A stretch of 27,386 bases of DNA, taken from a virus (Duplodnaviria > Heunggongvirae > Uroviricota > Caudoviricetes). The notes under the pieces were generated by a model. The model was not told the origin of the DNA, did no database searches, and saw only the letters and a program-made list of their open reading frames with translations. The translations under genes were made by a program, and so were the position numbers. The stretch spans positions 1-27,386 of the IMG/VR virus record IMGVR_UViG_2648501669_000002, one strand, 5' to 3'. This document shows, piece by piece, positions 210 through 9,469 of the stretch; the stretch's first letter is position 1, and each line of letters begins with the position of its first letter.

Positions 210-485
210 ATGAGCAACATCAAGAATGTCAAAGAAACAACAAACGGTACATGTACTGAAGATAACATCAAGCCCTACATTTATGCCGGCCTATGTACTG
301 ATGAAGAGTTGATTGATTTTCTGGAAGTCGTTGTAGCTGAATTGAAATGCCGCAACAGGTTACCACTAAGACAACAACAATTACGGCATGAATTAAAAAA
401 CTACCAAGCTGAAATAGATAGAAACAATGAGTTTCTTAATTCAGTCGTGTATCGGCAGGATAAAAATCCCAAGCAGAATCCTTAA
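210..485 (+). CDS. Hypothetical small protein (91 aa) in AT-rich insert
   Basis: First in-frame ATG of track ORF 174..485 (the track start is a TTG). Long ORF in AT-rich DNA, where chance ORFs are rarer. No clear SD; predicted coiled-coil-like C-terminus. 3' end overlaps the convergent gene 436..903 by 50 nt. Confidence 0.4.
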
Positions 486-903
486 AATGCAACAGACTTT
501 CATCTTCATAACTTAAATCAGGCACTGGAGATGAGAGCTCGTACTTATAAAGAATCTGGATACGCTCGGATACATGCTCTGGTATTACATATGCATTAAT
601 ATCATTCCAGAGAACAATAAGTATGTCATGGAGACACATATTTTTGGCATCAGACAATGAAACGCCCTTTTGGGTGAAAAGATAATGATAAAGCACATTT
701 TTCCCGAAGAGGACTACGCACTTGGAATCAATATTTCTTCGATACTCGACAAGTAACAAATCCAATTTAAGGAGAATCAATGCTCGAGTAGCAACAAATG
801 CTGAGTTGGCTGTTTCTTTATCCAGCACCTCACGATAGGTTTTAGCAACTCGCTCGTAGTGTTTTTCAAAAATTCGCAGACACACAGAAGCATCTAATTC
901 CAT
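436..903 (-). CDS. Hypothetical protein (155 aa) in AT-rich insert
   Basis: In-frame Met 51 of track ORF 436..1053 (MELDASV...) preceded on the minus strand by AAGGAG with good spacing. Visibly AT-rich compared with the rest of the window. No family recognised. Confidence 0.55.
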   Translation of the reverse strand: MELDASVCLRIFEKHYERVAKTYREVLDKETANSAFVATRALILLKLDLLLVEYRRNIDSKCVVLFGKNVLYHYLFTQKGVSLSDAKNMCLHDILIVLWNDINAYVIPEHVSERIQILYKYELSSPVPDLSYEDESLLHFKDSAWDFYPADTRLN

Positions 904-996
904 AACAACTCCTTTGTGGTTAGTTGAACACGCGCCCTTTACAGCCCCTTCAAGACTGCGGGCGGTGGAAAAATACCACAAAACCATGCGCCGGGC

Positions 997-1395
997 ATGG
1001 CTAAAACCCGGCACAAATTCGCAACAGCAGCAGGATATTTTTGTATGAAGCAACGACGTAATTCTTCACAGCAGCGATTCCGCAACGGGGCGGAACGCCA
1101 CGCTAACCGCTTCGCTACCAGTGCATCACGTAGCAGCTCTCGCTACAGCCTGAGCGAAACGCACGCAACACCAGACGGACACGCTGTAAAACAAATCGGC
1201 GAGCATACCTGGCTGATTGAGAAAGCTGGAATCGTGGTCCACAAATGCCCGCGCAATCCGTTTACCGGAAACCGCATTTTTGCTCTGAGCAGCGGCGACA
1301 ATCAGTTCGGGCAGGATTTCACATTATACGAAGCGCTTCGCACGGTTGATCGTCTGCTGCGTGGACAGAGTTTTATTAAACAGGCTGATTTATAA
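997..1395 (+). CDS. Hypothetical protein (start uncertain)
   Basis: Track ORF of 132 aa. N-terminal third is low-complexity and basic and no convincing SD precedes 997, so the true start may be internal (ATG at 1045 or a later GTG/TTG). The C-terminal half looks protein-like. Confidence 0.35.
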   Translation: MAKTRHKFATAAGYFCMKQRRNSSQQRFRNGAERHANRFATSASRSSSRYSLSETHATPDGHAVKQIGEHTWLIEKAGIVVHKCPRNPFTGNRIFALSSGDNQFGQDFTLYEALRTVDRLLRGQSFIKQADL

Positions 1396-2056: not shown

Positions 2057-2149
2057 CAGCACAAATAAAAAACCAGATTAAATAAGAAAACGTGAAAACC
2101 ATCCGAATTAACGGAGGCATTCACACACGTAAATAATGGAGATACAAAA

Positions 2150-2560
2150 ATGAACGCAAAAGAAAAAGGCATTGTAACTGCGCTAAAAAATATATCGAAG
2201 ACCGCAAACAGAGCCATTCAGGATGCAACAAATGCAGGAATGATTGGGCCTGCCACCACAGCCATGATGATAGCAAGAGTAACCGCCGAAGCAGCCGAAA
2301 TTATCGAAAAACATGATGCTGAACTAACGGTTCTCAGAACACAACCAGTCACCGGACTGGATTTGTCTAACACCGGACGCCTTATTTACACAATTGGCTC
2401 GGAGCCACAGCAATACACCATTATCGCCGGATTACAGGATAAATACCTGATCACTCCTCACCCCATAAGGGAATCAGAAATTCTGACAAATCTCCGCCTG
2501 ATAGAGCGCTCTCAAGTCGCATTCATTGATGACGCACAGCGCACCGTATTTAACGCATAG
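2150..2560 (+). CDS. Hypothetical protein (136 aa)
   Basis: Track ORF with GGAG SD about 8 nt upstream of the ATG; no family recognised. Confidence 0.6.
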   Translation: MNAKEKGIVTALKNISKTANRAIQDATNAGMIGPATTAMMIARVTAEAAEIIEKHDAELTVLRTQPVTGLDLSNTGRLIYTIGSEPQQYTIIAGLQDKYLITPHPIRESEILTNLRLIERSQVAFIDDAQRTVFNA

Positions 2561-2583
2561 GGTTACTGGACAAAGGGGGCGCA

Positions 2584-2787
2584 ATGGCAATTAAGCGTTT
2601 TTCCGTCATTCGTTTCACATCCAGAGGGCGTGAATACGAAGTTGACGAACGGCTGATTAAAACGCTCGACCGTCACCGTTCGCAACCTGACGCGCATCAC
2701 ATTTATCTCACTGACGACACTTACTTCTGCGCCACCAACGTGGTGCAGGTGAACCTTATCCGACAGGTACAGGAGTCACGCAGATGA
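2584..2787 (+). CDS. Hypothetical small protein (67 aa)
   Basis: Track ORF preceded by AAGGGGG; stop overlaps the next start (ATGA at 2784-2787). Confidence 0.5.
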   Translation: MAIKRFSVIRFTSRGREYEVDERLIKTLDRHRSQPDAHHIYLTDDTYFCATNVVQVNLIRQVQESRR

Positions 2788-3029
2788 CCATTCTGGACTA
2801 CATCACAGCCAATCCGGGTTGTAGCGGTGGAGAAATCGCCGCCGCGCTGAATACCCCAACCACAGCCATTAATGCTGAGTTGCGCCGACTCTGGCGTGAC
2901 GGCTTAGTCATCAGAGAAGAGCGCAAAACAGGCGGTCGGTTCTCTTACCAGGTAAACCCGATGCCGTTCGGGTGTGGCAACCCACTTACTCACATGTTTA
3001 ACCAGCTACTGAAGGAAGCCAGAGCATGA
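2784..3029 (+). CDS. Small winged-helix DNA-binding protein (81 aa)
   Basis: Track ORF. Segment GCSGGEIAAALNTPTTAINAELRRLWRDGLVIREERKTGGRFSY has the helix-turn-helix plus wing pattern of small wHTH regulators; translationally coupled to neighbours on both sides. Confidence 0.6.
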   Translation: MTILDYITANPGCSGGEIAAALNTPTTAINAELRRLWRDGLVIREERKTGGRFSYQVNPMPFGCGNPLTHMFNQLLKEARA

Positions 3030-3325
3030 GCACCATCAACCACCAGGAACTACGCGAACTGGCAACTGACCTGCAACGAATGGCAACGCATCAAAAATTA
3101 CTGGCGTTTCGCGCAATGCTCTCGCCATCTGCCGTGTTGGCACTACTGGATGAGCTGGAGCACGCCAGAACCACACCTCTCGCCATTCGCCTGACACTCC
3201 GCCATGAAATCGAGGATTTCTGCGCACCGCTGGAGTCACTAGGCGAACCAGAAACGCCGGAAGCAATGCAACAAGAGTTGCTGCAACGCATCGACAAGGT
3301 TTTTGATTTCTTCCTTAACCAGTAA
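3026..3325 (+). CDS. Hypothetical protein (99 aa), possibly Ead/Ea22-like
   Basis: Track ORF. The ELRELA...VLALLDELEHAR motif is reminiscent of prophage Ead/Ea22-like N-termini; this is memory-based and weak. Confidence 0.5.
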   Translation: MSTINHQELRELATDLQRMATHQKLLAFRAMLSPSAVLALLDELEHARTTPLAIRLTLRHEIEDFCAPLESLGEPETPEAMQQELLQRIDKVFDFFLNQ

Positions 3326-3336
3326 AGGACCTCGAT

Positions 3337-3540
3337 ATGAACAAAAAGACCTGGTTTCGCGCATACATGTGGGCGCTGGTATGCGTCCTCGTTTCTCTCA
3401 TTCTGTATGCAGGACTACTCCCCCGAATGATTTCATCAGACAGCTCCTTCCTGGTATTGCTGGGCATTTTCATTGCCATGCTGTACCCGGCAGGCGTTGT
3501 TCGCCTTTTCAGTAGGTACATCAAGGAAATCAAACAATGA
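3337..3540 (+). CDS. Small membrane protein (67 aa, two predicted TM helices)
   Basis: Track ORF with AAAGGA SD. Two hydrophobic stretches (WALVCVLVSLILYAGLL and FLVLLGIFIAMLYPAGVV). Stop overlaps the start of the SPFH gene (ATGA at 3537-3540). Confidence 0.55.
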   Translation: MNKKTWFRAYMWALVCVLVSLILYAGLLPRMISSDSSFLVLLGIFIAMLYPAGVVRLFSRYIKEIKQ

Positions 3541-4367
3541 AGAAATTCAAACTCTTTCAGATTCTCCCGCTTTTTGCTGCCATCCTGCTGGTTGGTTGCG
3601 ATCGCGTTGAGCCAGGTAATGTGGGCATCAAAGTCAACAAACTGGGCGACGACAAAGGCGTCGGTGAAGTGGTTGGCGTTGGACGCTACTGGACAGGCTG
3701 GAATACAGAGGTTTACATCTTCCCAACCTTCAAACAAATGAAGACCTACGATGAGCCGTTCAGCTTTCAGATGAGTGACGGCACAACCATCGGCTATCAC
3801 ATCGGTGTGGCCTACAAGGTTGATCCATCCAAAGTTACTACAGTGTTTCAGACCTACCGCAAAGGCGTGGATGACATTACCGACACTGACCTGCGCCAGA
3901 AGATCGCCGACGCACTCAACCGACTGGCCAGCAAAATGACCACCGATAAATTTATCGACGGTGGCAAGTCTGAACTGCTGGATTCAGCACTTAAAGACAT
4001 TCAGGAGGAAATGACACCTATCGGCATTCAGGTAATGAGCCTCTCTTATGTCGGTAAACCGGAATACCCACCAACCGTTATCGACAGCATTAATGCCAAA
4101 GTTACGGCAAACCAGAAAACCCTGCAACGCGAACAGGAAGTCAAGCAACGTGAAGCAGAAGCCAACATGTTGCGCGCAGAAGCTGCCGGACAGGCTGATG
4201 CCATTCGCACAAAAGCCCAGGCTGAAGCCGACGCCATTCGTTTGCGTGGTGAAGCTCTGCGCCAGAACCCCGGCGTTATGGAGCTGGAAGCAATCAACAA
4301 ATGGAACGGCACGCTGCCGCAATACATGACCAGTAATACTGCTGTTCCGTTTGTTCCGGTGAAGTAA
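3537..4367 (+). CDS. SPFH/band-7 (prohibitin/HflK-like) domain lipoprotein
   Basis: Track ORF of 276 aa. N-terminal signal peptide with lipobox (LLVGC). Central region plus a Q/E/A/R-rich coiled-coil tail (QREQEVKQREAEANMLRAEAAGQADAIRTKAQAEADAIRLRGEA) is typical of SPFH proteins. Confidence 0.7.
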   Translation: MKKFKLFQILPLFAAILLVGCDRVEPGNVGIKVNKLGDDKGVGEVVGVGRYWTGWNTEVYIFPTFKQMKTYDEPFSFQMSDGTTIGYHIGVAYKVDPSKVTTVFQTYRKGVDDITDTDLRQKIADALNRLASKMTTDKFIDGGKSELLDSALKDIQEEMTPIGIQVMSLSYVGKPEYPPTVIDSINAKVTANQKTLQREQEVKQREAEANMLRAEAAGQADAIRTKAQAEADAIRLRGEALRQNPGVMELEAINKWNGTLPQYMTSNTAVPFVPVK

Positions 4368-4434
4368 TTCAACCCGGCCAGTGAAACCGCTGGCCGAAAA
4401 TATAACGAATAAACAAAAAGCCAGAGGACAGAAC

Positions 4435-4581
4435 ATGCACAAAGCCTTTGAACGATGGATGCGCCAGCGTTACGGCAATCGCTATGACCTGACAAGGGAT
4501 GTTGATGGCTACTACTGCCGCGAAATTGTGAAACGAATGTTTGAAGTGTGGTGTCACGCTCACGGCCTGTACGCCGTGTAA
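4435..4581 (+). CDS. Hypothetical small protein (48 aa)
   Basis: In-frame Met 19 of track ORF 4381..4581 with AGAGGA SD 6 nt upstream; last gene of the rightward early block before a terminator. Confidence 0.4.
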   Translation: MHKAFERWMRQRYGNRYDLTRDVDGYYCREIVKRMFEVWCHAHGLYAV

Positions 4582-4719
4582 TCCATGTCACTGTCAGAAG
4601 ATTAACCCATGTACACACAAAAAAACCGCTTGCCATGCCGTAATCAGTCAGGTTACATTTCCGCTGCACCTCATAAAACGGGTGCCGGGTTTCGCAGCCT
4701 GCTGACAACCAAAGCGCAC

Positions 4720-5222: not shown

Positions 5223-5612
5223 ATGATTGACGCTCATGACTTCACAAGATGGGTGCGGACACAGGACACCCGTCTGGCTCCCGTTCTTCAGGGATTATTT
5301 GATCTTTACATCCGTGGTCGTGACAACAGAGCACGCACTACAAAACCGGAGAATGCGGACACCCTTTATTTCACAGTAGACGACTGCTACCGCGTGGACT
5401 TCACACCACACGGGCTGGCGTTGCACTGCCTGACACCACACGGCGAATCACTGCTGGCGTATTACGACTCCCCGGCCTCCGTATTCGCGGCAATGCTGGC
5501 GCATCGCACTGCTGGCGGGTGTGCCTCGCTGAGTGAATACACCGCTGAATTTAACCGCCTTTCCGCCATCTTCTCGCAGGAGTGGCAGCGCGTGACGGGA
5601 TACCAGCCATGA
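5223..5612 (+). CDS. Hypothetical protein (129 aa), translationally coupled to gpA
   Basis: Track ORF with AAAGAG SD; stop overlaps the ATG of the replication gene (ATGA at 5609-5612). Confidence 0.55.
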   Translation: MIDAHDFTRWVRTQDTRLAPVLQGLFDLYIRGRDNRARTTKPENADTLYFTVDDCYRVDFTPHGLALHCLTPHGESLLAYYDSPASVFAAMLAHRTAGGCASLSEYTAEFNRLSAIFSQEWQRVTGYQP

Positions 5613-8434
5613 GCGAGTTTGCATGGAGCTGGAATGAACCACGACCAGCCATTGATCCGGCCAGATTTACGGAGCGCAGGCAGGAAACTGAAACCGACCT
5701 GCAACGCGCCATCCGTTACTACCTTGAGGCAGACAAAAGGGCACAGGAAGAACAGGAAGCGAAGGAAGAAGCCTTTTTCGCACAATCCGCCATGGGTAAA
5801 AAACTCATGGCATCCCTTGAGGAAGCCGGACAGCGTGAAAAGCTGGCACAGAGCATCATCAGTAAGCGCCGGGCAACAGAACAAGACCCAGTAGCCCGTG
5901 CCTTTGCTACACTAAAGGCACTACCTGTTTATCTGCGTGAACCACTGAGCCGCCACCTCTCTTTCCTGCGCAAAAAACAGGAAGCCGATCGCCAGAAAGG
6001 CAAAAAGAGCTGGCAGGCGGAACGCTATGCACGCGGAACCCTGCGCAAAATATTCGAACGTCTGGATCGCACTGACGGACGCTGGCTGACACCGGGTTAT
6101 CGCTCCCTTGCCGGGCGCGAACGCCTGGACGATTTGCTTTACCTGCCGCAGCTCAACAAGCACCAGATACAGACGCTGGCCACCATGATCGCGGCGATGT
6201 TCAGCAGCACCTTCGAAACACTCTGCGATGGCTTTGGTGCCAGAGATGGCGAGCTGACCATGGATGTAATGTTGAAGGCTTACCGGATGCTGGCTCGTAT
6301 CGCATTACGCCTGCACATCATGCCGCCACATTACGAAGCCCTGAACAAGAGCGAACCGGATACGGAACTGCTGCCGGGTGCAATCCTTCGCCTGACCTGT
6401 GCGGACTGGTGGAAACGCAAACTGTGGCTGTTACGTTGCGAGTGGAGAGAAGAACAACTCCGCGCCGCCTGTCTGGTTTCCAGAAAAACATCGCCTTATC
6501 TGAGCCAGGACGCGTTAAGCGAGTTTCGCGCACAGCGCGAGAAAACACGCGATTTCCTGAAAAGTTTCATGCTGGAAAACGAAGACGGGTTCACGATTGA
6601 TCTCGAGACAGTGTATTACGCGGGAGTAAGTAACCCGGTTCACCGTAAGGCAGAAATGATGGCCACCATGAAGGGGCTGGAACTTCTGGCTGAAGCCCGT
6701 GGTGACAAAGCGGTGTTTCTGACTGTCACCTGCCCGTCAAAATACCACGCAACAACGGAGAACGGTCATCCGAATCCCAAATGGAACGGGGCCACCATGC
6801 GCGACTCCAGCGATTACCTGGTTAACACGTTTTTTGCGGCGGTCCGCAAGAAACTGAACCGCGACGGCCTGCGCTGGTATGGCATCCGCACGGTGGAGCC
6901 TCACCATGACGGCACCGTGCACTGGCATATGATGGTCTTTGCCCATCCGGAAGAAATCGACACCATTGTGTCCCACACCCGCGATATTGCCATTCAGGAA
7001 GATCGTCACGAGCTGGGCGATGATATTACTCCGCGCTTTAAGGCGGAGTATGTAGACGGCTCAAAAGGCACGCCAACCAGCTACATCGCCACCTACATCG
7101 GAAAGAACCTGGACAGCCGCGCCGTGGATGGCATCGACCCGAAAACGGGCAAGCCACGCGTTGACCACGAAACAGGAAAATCAATGGCCGAGAGCGTGGA
7201 GCGCGCCATCGGCTGGGCGCGCCTTCACCGGGTCCGCCAGTTCCAGTTCTTTGGCATTCCCTCCCGTCAGGTGTGGCGTGAACTCCGCCGCCTTGCCAGC
7301 CAGATGGCACGCAACCCGGAAGGCCAGCAACGGCTGAAGGATGACGCAATGGACGCGGTTCTTGCTGCCGCTGATGCCGGATGTTTTGCCACCTACATTG
7401 AGAAACAGGGCGGCGTACTTGTTCCACGCAAAGACTACCTGATTCGCACCGCCTACGACCTCGCAGATGAGCTGAACGATTACGGTGAACAGAGCGTACA
7501 GATTTACGGGATCTGGTCGCCGCTCATCGGGGAGTCTTCCCGCGTATGTACACATCCGGATAACTGGAAGCTGGTAAGACGCAAACCGGAAGCGGGAGAC
7601 AGCGCCCGCGAAAATGGTTTTGACCTTCAGGGCGGCCCTGCCGCCCCTTGGACTCATGGCAATAACTGTCCCCGTGTACAGGAAACAGGCAACAGCGGGA
7701 CAGAACTGTCGGAAGAGCAACCAACACCGTGGCCGCAGATCCCTGACAGCGTTGATGTGGATGAATGGATGCGCTCACTGAAACGGCACGAACGCCGGGC
7801 GCTGATGCGTTCGCTGCGTGACAAACAGGCAAAAAACAGCAGTGATGAAATGCAGAGCTGGACACAGAGCCGCAAACAGCCGCGACCTTTGCCTGATAAC
7901 CACGAGTTACTCGCTAAAGAATGGCGGGAGTCTGCTGAATCTCTCGGCCTGCATATTGGTGAACAGCAGATGCAGCACCTGTTACGGGGCGGCAGTCTGT
8001 ACGTTGACGGCAGCATCATTGCACCGCAGGGATTTGAAATTGTACGCAAACCGGATACCCGCCCGGACAGCCGAATCACGCAGCTCTGGCAGCGCCTGAG
8101 CCGTAATCACGGCGTAAGCAGCACGGAGATCCGCCATAACCCGGTCGCCAGTTATCTGGAACAGCTAGGGGCATCAGACCCCGAAGCCGCCGCACGCCTG
8201 GCATCCACACTTCAGCAAGACCAGAACACCATGAAAACACCCGTTACCGTGCTTTCTGACATGCTGCGCGCCATCCGTGACGCAGAGCACGCACAGAGAA
8301 TCAGTGAAACCACTGAACGCGCCCGCCGCAAAGCAAACCTGCTGCGGGGTGGCCTGACCAGTGGAAACAAAAAACAGACAGAAACGGGATTCACAAATCC
8401 CGTAAATGAGCAAAAAACGCGCCGCGATATATGA
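5609..8434 (+). CDS. A: Rolling-circle replication initiation endonuclease, P2 gpA family
   Basis: Track ORF 5582..8434 (GTG at 5582; ATG at 5609 coupled to the upstream stop is preferred). Contains the HUH-type motif VEPHHDGTVHWHMMVFAH and a paired-tyrosine segment TSYIATYIGKN, as in the P2 gpA endonuclease domain, plus an FLTVTCPSKYH motif. At 941 aa it is longer than P2 gpA (about 760 aa, from memory). Confidence 0.85.
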   Translation: MSEFAWSWNEPRPAIDPARFTERRQETETDLQRAIRYYLEADKRAQEEQEAKEEAFFAQSAMGKKLMASLEEAGQREKLAQSIISKRRATEQDPVARAFATLKALPVYLREPLSRHLSFLRKKQEADRQKGKKSWQAERYARGTLRKIFERLDRTDGRWLTPGYRSLAGRERLDDLLYLPQLNKHQIQTLATMIAAMFSSTFETLCDGFGARDGELTMDVMLKAYRMLARIALRLHIMPPHYEALNKSEPDTELLPGAILRLTCADWWKRKLWLLRCEWREEQLRAACLVSRKTSPYLSQDALSEFRAQREKTRDFLKSFMLENEDGFTIDLETVYYAGVSNPVHRKAEMMATMKGLELLAEARGDKAVFLTVTCPSKYHATTENGHPNPKWNGATMRDSSDYLVNTFFAAVRKKLNRDGLRWYGIRTVEPHHDGTVHWHMMVFAHPEEIDTIVSHTRDIAIQEDRHELGDDITPRFKAEYVDGSKGTPTSYIATYIGKNLDSRAVDGIDPKTGKPRVDHETGKSMAESVERAIGWARLHRVRQFQFFGIPSRQVWRELRRLASQMARNPEGQQRLKDDAMDAVLAAADAGCFATYIEKQGGVLVPRKDYLIRTAYDLADELNDYGEQSVQIYGIWSPLIGESSRVCTHPDNWKLVRRKPEAGDSARENGFDLQGGPAAPWTHGNNCPRVQETGNSGTELSEEQPTPWPQIPDSVDVDEWMRSLKRHERRALMRSLRDKQAKNSSDEMQSWTQSRKQPRPLPDNHELLAKEWRESAESLGLHIGEQQMQHLLRGGSLYVDGSIIAPQGFEIVRKPDTRPDSRITQLWQRLSRNHGVSSTEIRHNPVASYLEQLGASDPEAAARLASTLQQDQNTMKTPVTVLSDMLRAIRDAEHAQRISETTERARRKANLLRGGLTSGNKKQTETGFTNPVNEQKTRRDI
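8384..8403. repeat. Palindrome ACGGGATT-CACA-AATCCCGT (copy 1, inside the 3' end of gpA)
   Basis: Read directly: perfect 8-bp arms. Confidence 0.45.
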
Positions 8435-8509: not shown

Positions 8510-9469
8510 ATGAAAATTTGTATCGACGACGGCTCCACCAACATCAAGCTGGCATGGACTGAGAACGGCGAACGCCGCAACGCCATCAGCCCGAACAGCT
8601 TCAAGTCGGAATGGTCAGCGCCGTTCGGTGGCACGCAGCCCGCGAACTACATGCTTGATGGCGTGCGCTATGGTTTTGATCCGGTCAGCGATCGCTTTGT
8701 CCAGACGACCGACACGCAATACCAGTACAGCGATGTGAATGTTATTGCCATTCATCATGCGCTGGTCAAATCAGGCATCACACCACAGGAGGTGGATGTG
8801 GTTGTCACCCTGCCACTGAGCGAGTATTTCGATACAAACGCACAGCCGGACATGGCCAACATCAGCCGCAAAAAAGCGAACGTTATGCGCCCGGTGGAGT
8901 ACCAGAACGGCGAAGCATTCACTATCCGTAACGTGCGGGTTATGCCTGAATCCATTCCGGCAGGCTTTAAAGCACTGGCTGACATGAGTCCGTTTGAATC
9001 CCTGCTGATTGTGGATTTGGGCGGAACCACGCTGGATGTGGCAAAGGTTCAGGGGCAACTGGCAGGTATCAGCCAGGTGTTTTGCGATCCACACGTAGGC
9101 GTTTCTCTGATGGCCGATGCCGTGCTGTCGGTGATGGCCACCAACGGTATGCGTACCAGTCACCACATCGCTAATACCATTATCGAACATCGCCACGATG
9201 AAGCCTGGCTGCGCCAGCACATCCACAATGACGCGCATTACGCCAGCCTGATGGCAGTTATTCGTGAAAAGGAGGAAACACTGAAACAACGCGTGATCCG
9301 CGCGCTGGCGGGTTTTTCGGGTTACGGGCGGGTGATGGTTGTCGGTGGAGGGGCGGAGATTGTGGCACCCGCCATCCGCGAAGCCTGCGGAGTTAATGCG
9401 ACTTTCATCGCGGACGGGGTGCCACAGTTTGCTCTGGTTAATGGGCTGTACGCAATGGACAAGGAGTAA
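8510..9469 (+). CDS. parM: ParM-like actin-type segregation ATPase
   Basis: Track ORF of 319 aa. N-terminus MKICIDDGSTNIKLAW closely matches plasmid R1 ParM (MLVFIDDGSTNIKLQW, from memory), with further ParM-like segments (ISPNSFK, QYSDVNVIAIHHAL, DLGGTTLD). AAGGA SD. Confidence 0.85.
   Translation: MKICIDDGSTNIKLAWTENGERRNAISPNSFKSEWSAPFGGTQPANYMLDGVRYGFDPVSDRFVQTTDTQYQYSDVNVIAIHHALVKSGITPQEVDVVVTLPLSEYFDTNAQPDMANISRKKANVMRPVEYQNGEAFTIRNVRVMPESIPAGFKALADMSPFESLLIVDLGGTTLDVAKVQGQLAGISQVFCDPHVGVSLMADAVLSVMATNGMRTSHHIANTIIEHRHDEAWLRQHIHNDAHYASLMAVIREKEETLKQRVIRALAGFSGYGRVMVVGGGAEIVAPAIREACGVNATFIADGVPQFALVNGLYAMDKE

Follow-up and report, generated by a model that had tools for sequence, protein, structure and literature searches.

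SPFH proteins such as HflK/C, stomatin, prohibitin and flotillin form membrane cages that sequester client proteins. The SPFH domains of QmcA and YqiK face the cytoplasm, and YdjI of Bacillus subtilis works with small membrane proteins other than NfeD. The SPFH genes of phages appear in the literature chiefly as annotations: SPFH open reading frames (ORFs) of T4-like phages were listed as novel ORFs in 2006 (PMC1524935), the MbpV/MbpS pair of Kayvirus was discussed speculatively with its function given as unknown (PMC7150955), and a 2026 paper called the reason for an SPFH gene in a phage genome unclear (PMC13239085). Here we describe such a gene and its partner in a 27,386-nucleotide stretch of DNA from a tailed phage (positions 1 to 27,386 of IMG/VR record IMGVR_UViG_2648501669_000002), hereafter the window, which is a P88-type P2-like prophage (Xuanwuvirus). 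A small protein with two predicted transmembrane (TM) segments is encoded directly ahead of, and overlapping with, an SPFH lipoprotein, and the two correspond to P88 gp11 and gp12, respectively. The reading that we prefer, to which we assign a probability of roughly 0.4, is that the pair forms an inner-membrane, periplasm-facing, HflK/C-like SPFH scaffold that would be expressed early in the lytic cycle and would insulate or stabilise a patch of the membrane.

The SPFH lipoprotein and its two-TM partner

An earlier note made from the letters of this DNA had proposed a 67-amino acid two-TM protein whose stop overlaps the start of a 276-amino acid lipoprotein with an SPFH-like core and a coiled-coil tail, and both ORFs lie precisely where it had placed them (Table 1). 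The SPFH assignment was also borne out: in a Pfam profile search the Band_7 family (PF01145) matched residues 23-209 with an E-value of 5.7e-31 and 108.4 bits, well above the cutoff of 23.6, and a lipobox and a long helix were found as described below. Furthermore, the 276-amino acid protein matched PHROG 200 (lipoprotein) with an E-value of 1.8e-112 and was 100% identical to P88 gp12 in a tblastn search. Among solved structures, the only relatives found by sequence were E. coli HflK (E = 1e-4) and prohibitin-2. The AlphaFold2 model of the protein had a mean predicted local distance difference test score (pLDDT) of 67.7, being confident at about residues 65-250 and below 50 at residues 18-64, and it contained the SPFH alpha/beta core, with strands at residues 66-95 and 164-176, and a single continuous helix at residues 179-243 (pLDDT 76-87), a stretch that was aligned by sequence with residues 180-306 of HflK. 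The best Foldseek matches of this model were HflK/C, with the HflK/C-FtsH complexes on top, erlin1/2, prohibitin and stomatin (E about 1e-8, probability 1.0). As modelled, the helix at residues 179-243 appears to be the counterpart of the coiled-coil wall helix in SPFH cages. Despite this similarity of fold, the protein scored 25.7 bits with the NCBIfam model of HflC and 23.5 bits with that of HflK, far under the equivalog cutoffs of 134.4 and 159.4, respectively, and therefore an HflK or HflC orthologue was ruled out.

The C-terminal end of the protein is also conserved. Residues W256, N257, G258, L260, P261, P271, F272 and K276 were invariant in an alignment of close relatives, the KWNG.LP motif was found as well in the homologues of PVP-SE1, PaCe (Pseudomonas) and phiE125 (Burkholderia), and MbpS of Staphylococcus phage K has a version of it, EKWNGKQP. 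The gene is labelled 'serine protease' in phiP27, Stx phages and P88, a label that most probably goes back to the former name 'HflA protease'; a protease domain was not found by the Pfam search.

The lipoprotein begins with the signal peptide MKKFKLFQILPLFAAILLVG, which is followed by Cys21, so that the lipobox reads L-V-G-C and Asp22 occupies the +2 position. The pattern [LVI][ASTVI][GAS]C after a basic n-region and a hydrophobic h-region is thus present, as MKKFK-LFQILPLFAAILLVG-C21. In Enterobacteria, Asp at this position is the canonical signal for Lol avoidance and hence for retention in the inner membrane, and because of this residue the SPFH protein of the window is predicted to be held in the inner membrane and to face the periplasm, like HflK/C. 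However, the window lipoprotein has Arg at +3, which does not provide one of the strongest contexts for retention, and for this reason retention is predicted rather than certain. Of 208 related loci, 193 have a recognisable lipobox, with Asp at +2 in 168 and Glu in 19 of them (Asp or Glu in 187 of the 193). Because the SPFH beta-strands begin 3 residues past the Cys that would be acylated, this domain must be positioned flat against the membrane surface.

The partner has hydrophobic stretches at residues 10-28 and 37-55, basic termini (MNKKTWFR at the N-terminus and RLFSRYIKEIKQ at the C-terminus) and an inter-helix loop of nine residues, PRMISSDSS. The positive-inside rule predicts a hairpin with both termini in the cytoplasm (N-in/C-in) and only a very short loop in the periplasm, which would emerge at the same membrane surface as that on which the SPFH domain would lie. 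It matched PHROG 1130 (membrane protein) with an E-value of 2.1e-22, and of 26 members of its family 17 belong to PHROG 1130 and 4, those of Pseudomonas phages, to PHROG 11110. The ORF and family assignments of both genes are far beyond chance, judging by these PHROG E-values and the more than 700 database homologues of the SPFH gene, which has its relatives in Enterobacterales. The earlier note had also suggested a search for an NfeD-like partner; this idea had to be given up, since NfeD did not match at E <= 1 in the window partner or in any of the 26 members. More generally, no Pfam family, including NfeD, holin and Imm, scored above noise for the window partner or 25 diverse relatives. Nevertheless, the partner alignments argue that it is a real, conserved family distinct from NfeD: in the two alignments made, Pro29 at the start of the loop was the sole invariant column and the loop was the best conserved stretch, with the family consensus YGxxxP-x-L-V-S-A-K-D-T..V..GFA....P.

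The association of the two genes was followed in 209 loci, drawn from phage records and from IMG/VR (the latter around SPFH homologues of three subfamilies) in addition to the window itself, and a partner was sought as a same-strand ORF just 5' of the SPFH gene with an iterated hidden Markov model (HMM) of the partner. Such an ORF was detected in 195 of the 209 loci, and in 134 out of 134 when the SPFH protein was at least 55% identical to that of the window. In 183 loci its stop overlaps the SPFH start, at 38-57 nucleotides 5' of the lipobox Cys codon, and in 9 loci it lies about 210-228 nucleotides 5' of that codon; these 9 have the arrangement of PVP-SE1, with one small gene in between. The first pass of the HMM missed the Burkholderia loci and one other group (L110-L118), and iteration on stop-to-stop peptides recovered those of Burkholderia. 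Among the loci with no detected partner, the loop motif can be recognised by eye in a two-TM ORF of L110-L118 (HMM E = 1.2), and PaCe has a weak partner match two genes upstream. Both phiP27 and the P1-like RCS47 also have a homologous, unannotated ORF directly 5' of their SPFH genes. In the window the overlap takes the form of an ATGA at 3537-3540, in which the TGA of the partner is shared with the ATG of the SPFH gene; an AAGGA Shine-Dalgarno-like motif lies 7-9 nucleotides 5' of each start (3325-3329 and 3523-3527), and the ribosome-binding site of the partner adjoins the stop codon of the gene before it (3026..3325). Together these features indicate that the pair is tightly packed and translationally coupled.

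Further evidence for a functional link came from natural fusions. A single-sequence search with the 67-amino acid partner retrieved close relatives only, and a profile was needed; when 1.84 billion representative proteins were searched exhaustively with such a profile, 643 partner clusters were obtained at E <= 1e-3. The best 150 of the 643 were each 57-90 amino acids long, with the sole exception of P0312 (360 amino acids), an in-frame fusion of the partner (residues 1-52), a third TM segment with a lipobox, and Band_7 (residues 94-288), which is 35% identical to the window SPFH protein across its full length. P0001 (347 amino acids) is a recent fusion, in which a P1-type partner was joined to its own SPFH protein by a frameshift in the 20-nucleotide overlap. 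Because of these two fusions, both the functional link and a topology with the C-terminus of the partner in the cytoplasm and the SPFH domain outside are supported.

The dimensions of the partner also raise the possibility of a regulated pore, in which the hairpin would be a permeabiliser like a class II holin and the SPFH cage would restrain it or time its action, either for the tuning of lysis or as an abortive-infection switch. About 67 amino acids, two TM segments, an N-in/C-in topology and a charged C-terminal tail are the size and topology of a class II holin or pinholin, one database names a Pseudomonas-phage member of the partner family 'Holin', and in phage K the MbpV-MbpS genes come right after holin and endolysin, with the authors likening MbpV to holins (PMC7150955). 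We nevertheless consider this explanation unlikely, because none of the holin families of Pfam was matched (the best was Phage_holin_10, at E = 0.058 in 1 of the 26 members), because the pair is located in early regions far from lysis genes in the window and in most phages examined, and because the small protein of phage K has one TM segment and did not turn up when profiles of the partner family were used for searching.

The two halves of the pair have evolved unequally. Between the window and the P1-like RCS47, the mature SPFH protein is 98% identical, the partner 38% and the signal peptide 30%, and for the lambdoid phiP27 the corresponding values are 97%, 22% and 40%. At the DNA level, homology to the P1-like and Stx/phiP27 copies begins at 3594-3597, and identity to the P1-like and phiP27/Stx2a copies changes from 30-60% to 80-95% at the Cys codon (3597), which marks a sharp mosaic junction. 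For the mature SPFH segment, synonymous divergence (dS) was 0.5-1.0 and nonsynonymous divergence (dN) 0.008-0.02, with a dN/dS of 0.008-0.04, and dS was saturated for the partner and the signal peptide. It could be that the mature-SPFH segment was swapped among unrelated phage lineages more recently than the upstream half; alternatively, the partner could be evolving much faster. The extreme constraint on the mature SPFH sequence would fit an oligomer with multiple interfaces, and the fold, the conserved C-terminal tail and this dN/dS, taken together, suggest assembly into a ring or cage on the membrane. A co-variation of partner type with SPFH sequence was looked for and none was visible, as one mature SPFH is found with very different partners. 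Near-identical SPFH proteins with such divergent partners imply that any contact must rest on a few conserved loop residues, or else that the partner is a variable 'specificity' part.

Table 1. Features of the gene pair and their positions in the window
Feature	Position	Strand	Basis
Partner (67 amino acids), predicted two-TM hairpin, PHROG 1130	3337..3540	+	ORF, hydrophobicity, PHROG match
Conserved predicted periplasmic loop of the partner, P29-R-M-I-S-S-D-S-S	3421..3447	+	Family alignments
SPFH/Band-7 lipoprotein (276 amino acids), PHROG 200	3537..4367	+	Pfam, PHROG, tblastn, Foldseek
Signal peptide (residues 1-20), Cys21 (3597-3599) and Asp22	3537..3602	+	Sequence reading
Band_7/SPFH domain, residues 23-209	3603..4163	+	Pfam envelope
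Ala/Glu/Gln-rich long helix, residues 179-243	4071..4265	+	DSSP on AlphaFold2 model
C-terminal motif K-W-N-G-T-L-P, residues 255-261, followed by P-F-x-x-x-K tail	4299..4319	+	Alignment

Genomic context and distribution

The window is 95% identical in DNA to P88 over positions 3000-4396. The pair lies between an ead/Ea22-like gene and the replication gene A (5582..8434; Phage_GPA, E = 1e-130), within a packed run of genes on the + strand, and the earlier placement of the pair in the early region of a temperate phage was therefore correct. Citrobacter phage Shae_phiSM is collinear with the window and runs from the C repressor through cox, small early genes and a helix-turn-helix gene to ead/Ea22; the slot that follows (3341..3892 in its locus), ahead of gene A, is occupied by a gene for a 183-amino acid DNA-binding protein that replaces the pair. 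Homology to Shae_phiSM stops at window position 3329 and homology to P88 at 4396. Because Shae_phiSM holds a different gene there, the slot in the Cox-side early operon can be regarded as variable and the pair as accessory cargo, as had been proposed; the occurrence of the SPFH segment in P1-like, lambdoid/Stx and N4-like phages is further support for this view.

The search for signals belonging to the pair itself gave little. The + strand has no sigma70-like site from 2137 to 4630, its only terminator-like matches in the vicinity of the pair fall inside the partner ORF (3371-3388 and 3450-3464) with none from the SPFH stop to 4720, and the GC content of the pair region (48-52%) is similar to that of its neighbours. 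An autonomous moron, for which promoter and terminator signals of its own and a deviant GC content were looked for, is thus unsupported, although the slot is still one of variable cargo. A hairpin with a 7-bp GC-rich stem (CGGCCAG, a loop of 8 nucleotides, CTGGCCG) was noticed at 4375-4396, 8 nucleotides past the SPFH stop; it has no T run and hence is no canonical terminator, and its 3' end is the end of the P88 homology.

The promoter of the window copy cannot be read, because the left end of the window is unlike the int-C-cox region of its relatives and starts in an insertion sequence. The window begins within a copy of IS2, with bases 3-110 on the - strand encoding the first 36 amino acids of IS2 TnpA/InsC (E = 3.3e-18). 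Bases 1-1037 are AT-rich (37-42% GC), with no homology to the int-C-cox region of P88 or Shae_phiSM, and an ORF at 436..1053 on the - strand encodes an ECs1072-family phage-associated protein (E = 1.2e-31). It seems that the immunity and integration end of this prophage was replaced or disrupted. On the other side, a gene for a ParM-type actin-like segregation protein (8510..9469; StbA_N, E = 4.4e-82) adjoins gene A, as in P88.

SPFH homologues are widespread. They were found by tblastn in 768 of 50,697 phage records. Of 5,426 complete E. coli genomes, 530 (approximately 10%) carry the SPFH gene, and 145 of these have both genes in full, as they stand in the window; the matching places in complete E. 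coli genomes numbered 609, of which 191 were plasmid-borne. Temperate carriers include P1-like, lambdoid/Stx and Burkholderia phiE125-type phages. Other carriers are strictly virulent or are large phages with a lytic cycle, and they include PVP-SE1, an N4-like phage, phages like LUZ24, phage K of Staphylococcus, EF24C of Enterococcus, phiCbK-like phages and Halorubrum tailed viruses. In the seven Gram-negative phage contexts that we inspected, the pair is located away from lysis genes. In phage K (3654..4753 of its locus), the stop of MbpV (102 amino acids, one TM segment) overlaps the start of MbpS, the SPFH protein, and this transcription unit is found between two annotated terminators directly after holin and endolysin. 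A general association with lysis genes, seen in phage K only, was thus ruled out.

Several of these contexts bear on the time of expression. In phiP27, the pair is located in the distal early-left region, adjoining xis and int. In the P1-like RCS47 (2730..3774 of its locus), it lies between upl and tRNA-Met/ban on the same strand as ban, with a bipartite C1 operator (965-992 of its locus) 1.7 kb upstream on that strand; the small partner ORF is unannotated in this record. At the position that the pair occupies in P1-like phage-plasmids, P1 itself presumably has tciABC. In PVP-SE1, which is strictly virulent, the pair is gp115/gp117 and is located 3' of annotated promoters. From the Cox-side early operon of the window, the early-left position in phiP27, the C1 operator and ban in RCS47 and the promoters in PVP-SE1, we infer that the pair is transcribed early.

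Another explanation is lysogenic conversion, in which the gene would be expressed from the prophage as a surface or vesicle lipoprotein that aids the host through virulence, immune modulation or tolerance of envelope stress; the frequency of the SPFH gene among E. coli genomes speaks for it. A precedent is PM0222 of a Pasteurella multocida prophage, an HflK/C-like protein of 25-35 kDa that occurs in outer-membrane vesicles, signals through Toll-like receptors 1/2 (TLR1/2) and adds to virulence (PMC9872710), although it is likened to the phage SPFH family by its description. We regard lysogenic conversion as very unlikely here, given the inner-membrane retention predicted from Asp at +2, the lack of promoter and terminator signals of the pair's own, the presence of the pair in virulent phages, and a conserved inner-membrane partner that is hard to square with a role in the outer membrane or in vesicles. 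A purely lysogenic role is unlikely in any case because the pair is found in virulent phages and in early operons, and the lytic cycle is the most likely beneficiary of whatever the pair does at the membrane. The superinfection exclusion that the earlier note had suggested would accordingly have to be sought in the lytic cycle more than as a trait of lysogenic conversion.

The same distribution bears on a second explanation, namely that the phage cage mimics HflK/C and captures, or competes for, FtsH or another membrane protease, thereby altering the turnover of phage or host substrates, for instance regulators of lysis and lysogeny, or membrane quality control. E. coli HflK is the nearest solved relative by sequence, the HflK/C-FtsH complexes were the top folds, and the predicted periplasmic orientation is the same as that of HflK/C. 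The hflK and hflC genes are classically tied to lambda lysogenisation, which also speaks for such a role. In addition, a link of this kind to lysogeny has been inferred for the SPFH protein of a Pseudomonas satellite prophage (PMC4936722). However, the scores far under the HflK/HflC equivalog cutoffs, the dedicated non-FtsH partner, and the presence of the SPFH family in virulent phages without a lysogeny decision and in haloarchaeal viruses do not favour this explanation. Haloarchaeal hosts are not known to have FtsH. Overall, we find a mimic of HflK/C doubtful.

A proposed role at the inner membrane early in infection

The reading that we prefer, an early scaffold on the periplasmic face of the inner membrane, can be put together as follows. 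The 276-amino acid protein would be exported, lipidated at Cys21 and held in the inner membrane by Asp at +2, so that its SPFH domain would rest directly on the periplasmic surface of the membrane. The long helix and the KWNG.LP tail would drive its assembly into a ring or cage of the kind formed by HflK/C, stomatin and prohibitin. The 67-amino acid hairpin, co-translated with the lipoprotein, would present its short conserved periplasmic loop at the membrane surface and might serve either as a membrane-embedded anchor of the cage or as its client. The module would be transcribed with the early lytic operon and not as a lysogenic-conversion gene, and the payoff, which is the step that we advance most tentatively, would most likely be an inner-membrane patch that is insulated or stabilised early in infection. 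As a result, DNA entry by a superinfecting phage might be blocked, premature depolarisation or lysis might be prevented, or both, and the lytic programme would stay on schedule.

Several observations weigh against this reading. Our literature searches on phage SPFH proteins found no experiment, just annotation and speculation. The cage, the lipidation and the contact with the partner are predictions, and the AlphaFold2 model is of moderate quality only. A tight co-evolving interface is not evident, since the same mature SPFH protein occurs with partners that are 22-38% identical. Glu instead of Asp is found at +2 in some relatives, and in the variant P0117, which is common (175 contigs, the longest of 252 kb), Tyr replaces the lipobox Cys; therefore, neither inner-membrane retention nor lipidation is universal in the family. 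The timing of expression was deduced from relatives, because the immunity and promoter region of the window is missing or replaced. Furthermore, the HflK/C-like protein of the Pasteurella prophage is detectable in the vesicles of the lysogen (PMC9872710). Finally, no defence model of PADLOC-DB 2.0 matched the SPFH protein, and the partner matched just PDC-M18B with an E-value of 0.014 over 21 residues. Nothing convincing was thus found in PADLOC for a known defence system, and the superinfection-immunity (Imm) family of Pfam gave no match among the 26 partner members, only TM noise.

In a broader reading, the SPFH lipoprotein and its hairpin might represent a general viral device that had gone unrecognised, in which a cage would assemble by itself and seal off part of the host cytoplasmic membrane early in infection. 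It would be used by phages of Gram-negative bacteria and, with altered partners, by archaeal viruses and the phages of Gram-positive bacteria. Such a device might exclude superinfecting genomes, or it might shield the cell against depolarising abortive-infection effectors or premature triggering of holins, with the fast-evolving partner acting as the specificity subunit and the near-invariant SPFH protein as the scaffold. We consider this generalisation rather unlikely as a whole.

Phage SPFH genes have been little studied, and the family is widespread and strongly constrained. A dedicated, conserved, non-NfeD partner turns the SPFH gene into a defined two-gene unit, which can be tested in tractable phages such as P88, P1-like phages and PVP-SE1, and the early-operon position in both temperate and virulent phages points to the lytic cycle over lysogenic conversion. 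If the pair does act in exclusion or as a membrane shield, it would represent a new class of mechanism in phage-phage competition, and it would also provide a minimal model of an SPFH cage for structural work. If it is a membrane chaperone and nothing else, the pair stays an ordinary set of accessory genes.

Comparison with known systems

Judged by its letters, the sequence is not new: both proteins fall within described groups (the SPFH superfamily, PHROG 200 and PHROG 1130) and the genes are identical to those annotated in P88. The pair does not differ in sequence from P88 gp11/gp12 or from PHROG 1130/PHROG 200, which are the same genes; the P88 and PHROG records give them labels ('membrane protein' for one, and 'lipoprotein', 'putative SPFH domain protein' or 'serine protease' for the other) with no function.

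The closest match among solved structures is E. coli HflK/HflC, with which the phage protein has in common an SPFH domain followed by a long coiled-coil helix and a predicted periplasmic location at the inner membrane. In contrast to HflK/HflC, to which it is about 17-19% identical in structural alignments and whose NCBIfam cutoffs it fails to reach, the phage protein is the product of a single gene with a lipobox in place of an N-terminal TM anchor and a K/C hetero-pair, and it is much shorter and has a two-TM partner of its own. The SPFH-NfeD operons (QmcA/YbbK-YbbJ, YqiK-YqiJ and Pyrococcus PH1511-PH1510) resemble the pair in that an SPFH gene stands next to a co-directional, co-transcribed gene for a small membrane protein, the pairing on which the idea of the earlier note was built. 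However, the phage partner is without NfeD or an OB-fold and consists of a 67-amino acid hairpin only, its gene comes first, and the SPFH domain of the phage protein is predicted to face the periplasm.

Among phages, the MbpV-MbpS pair of Kayvirus is similar in that the stop of a small membrane-protein gene overlaps the SPFH start and the C-terminal KWNG motif is held in common. Unlike the pair of the window, to which it is about 25% identical, MbpS has a TM anchor and no canonical lipobox, MbpV has one TM segment and a long charged tail, and the genes adjoin the lysis cassette. T4 Imm/Sp offers a functional analogy only, being likewise early and consisting of a small two-TM inner-membrane protein and a periplasm-facing, membrane-anchored protein; no sequence relationship was detected by Pfam, and the T4 proteins are not SPFH proteins. 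For a role of SPFH proteins in protection against membrane stress, a precedent is YdjI of Bacillus subtilis, which links PspA to the membrane (PMC8581546), although it is a host protein of a Gram-positive bacterium, has no lipobox and is likened to the phage protein by its SPFH domain. Thus the locus is neither HflK/C nor an SPFH-NfeD operon, the defining features of which were sought in it and were not found. Instead, the sequence comparisons indicate an undescribed variant of the SPFH-plus-partner arrangement, in which a predicted periplasmic SPFH protein with a putative lipid anchor is combined with a dedicated non-NfeD two-TM partner in the early operons of temperate and virulent phages.

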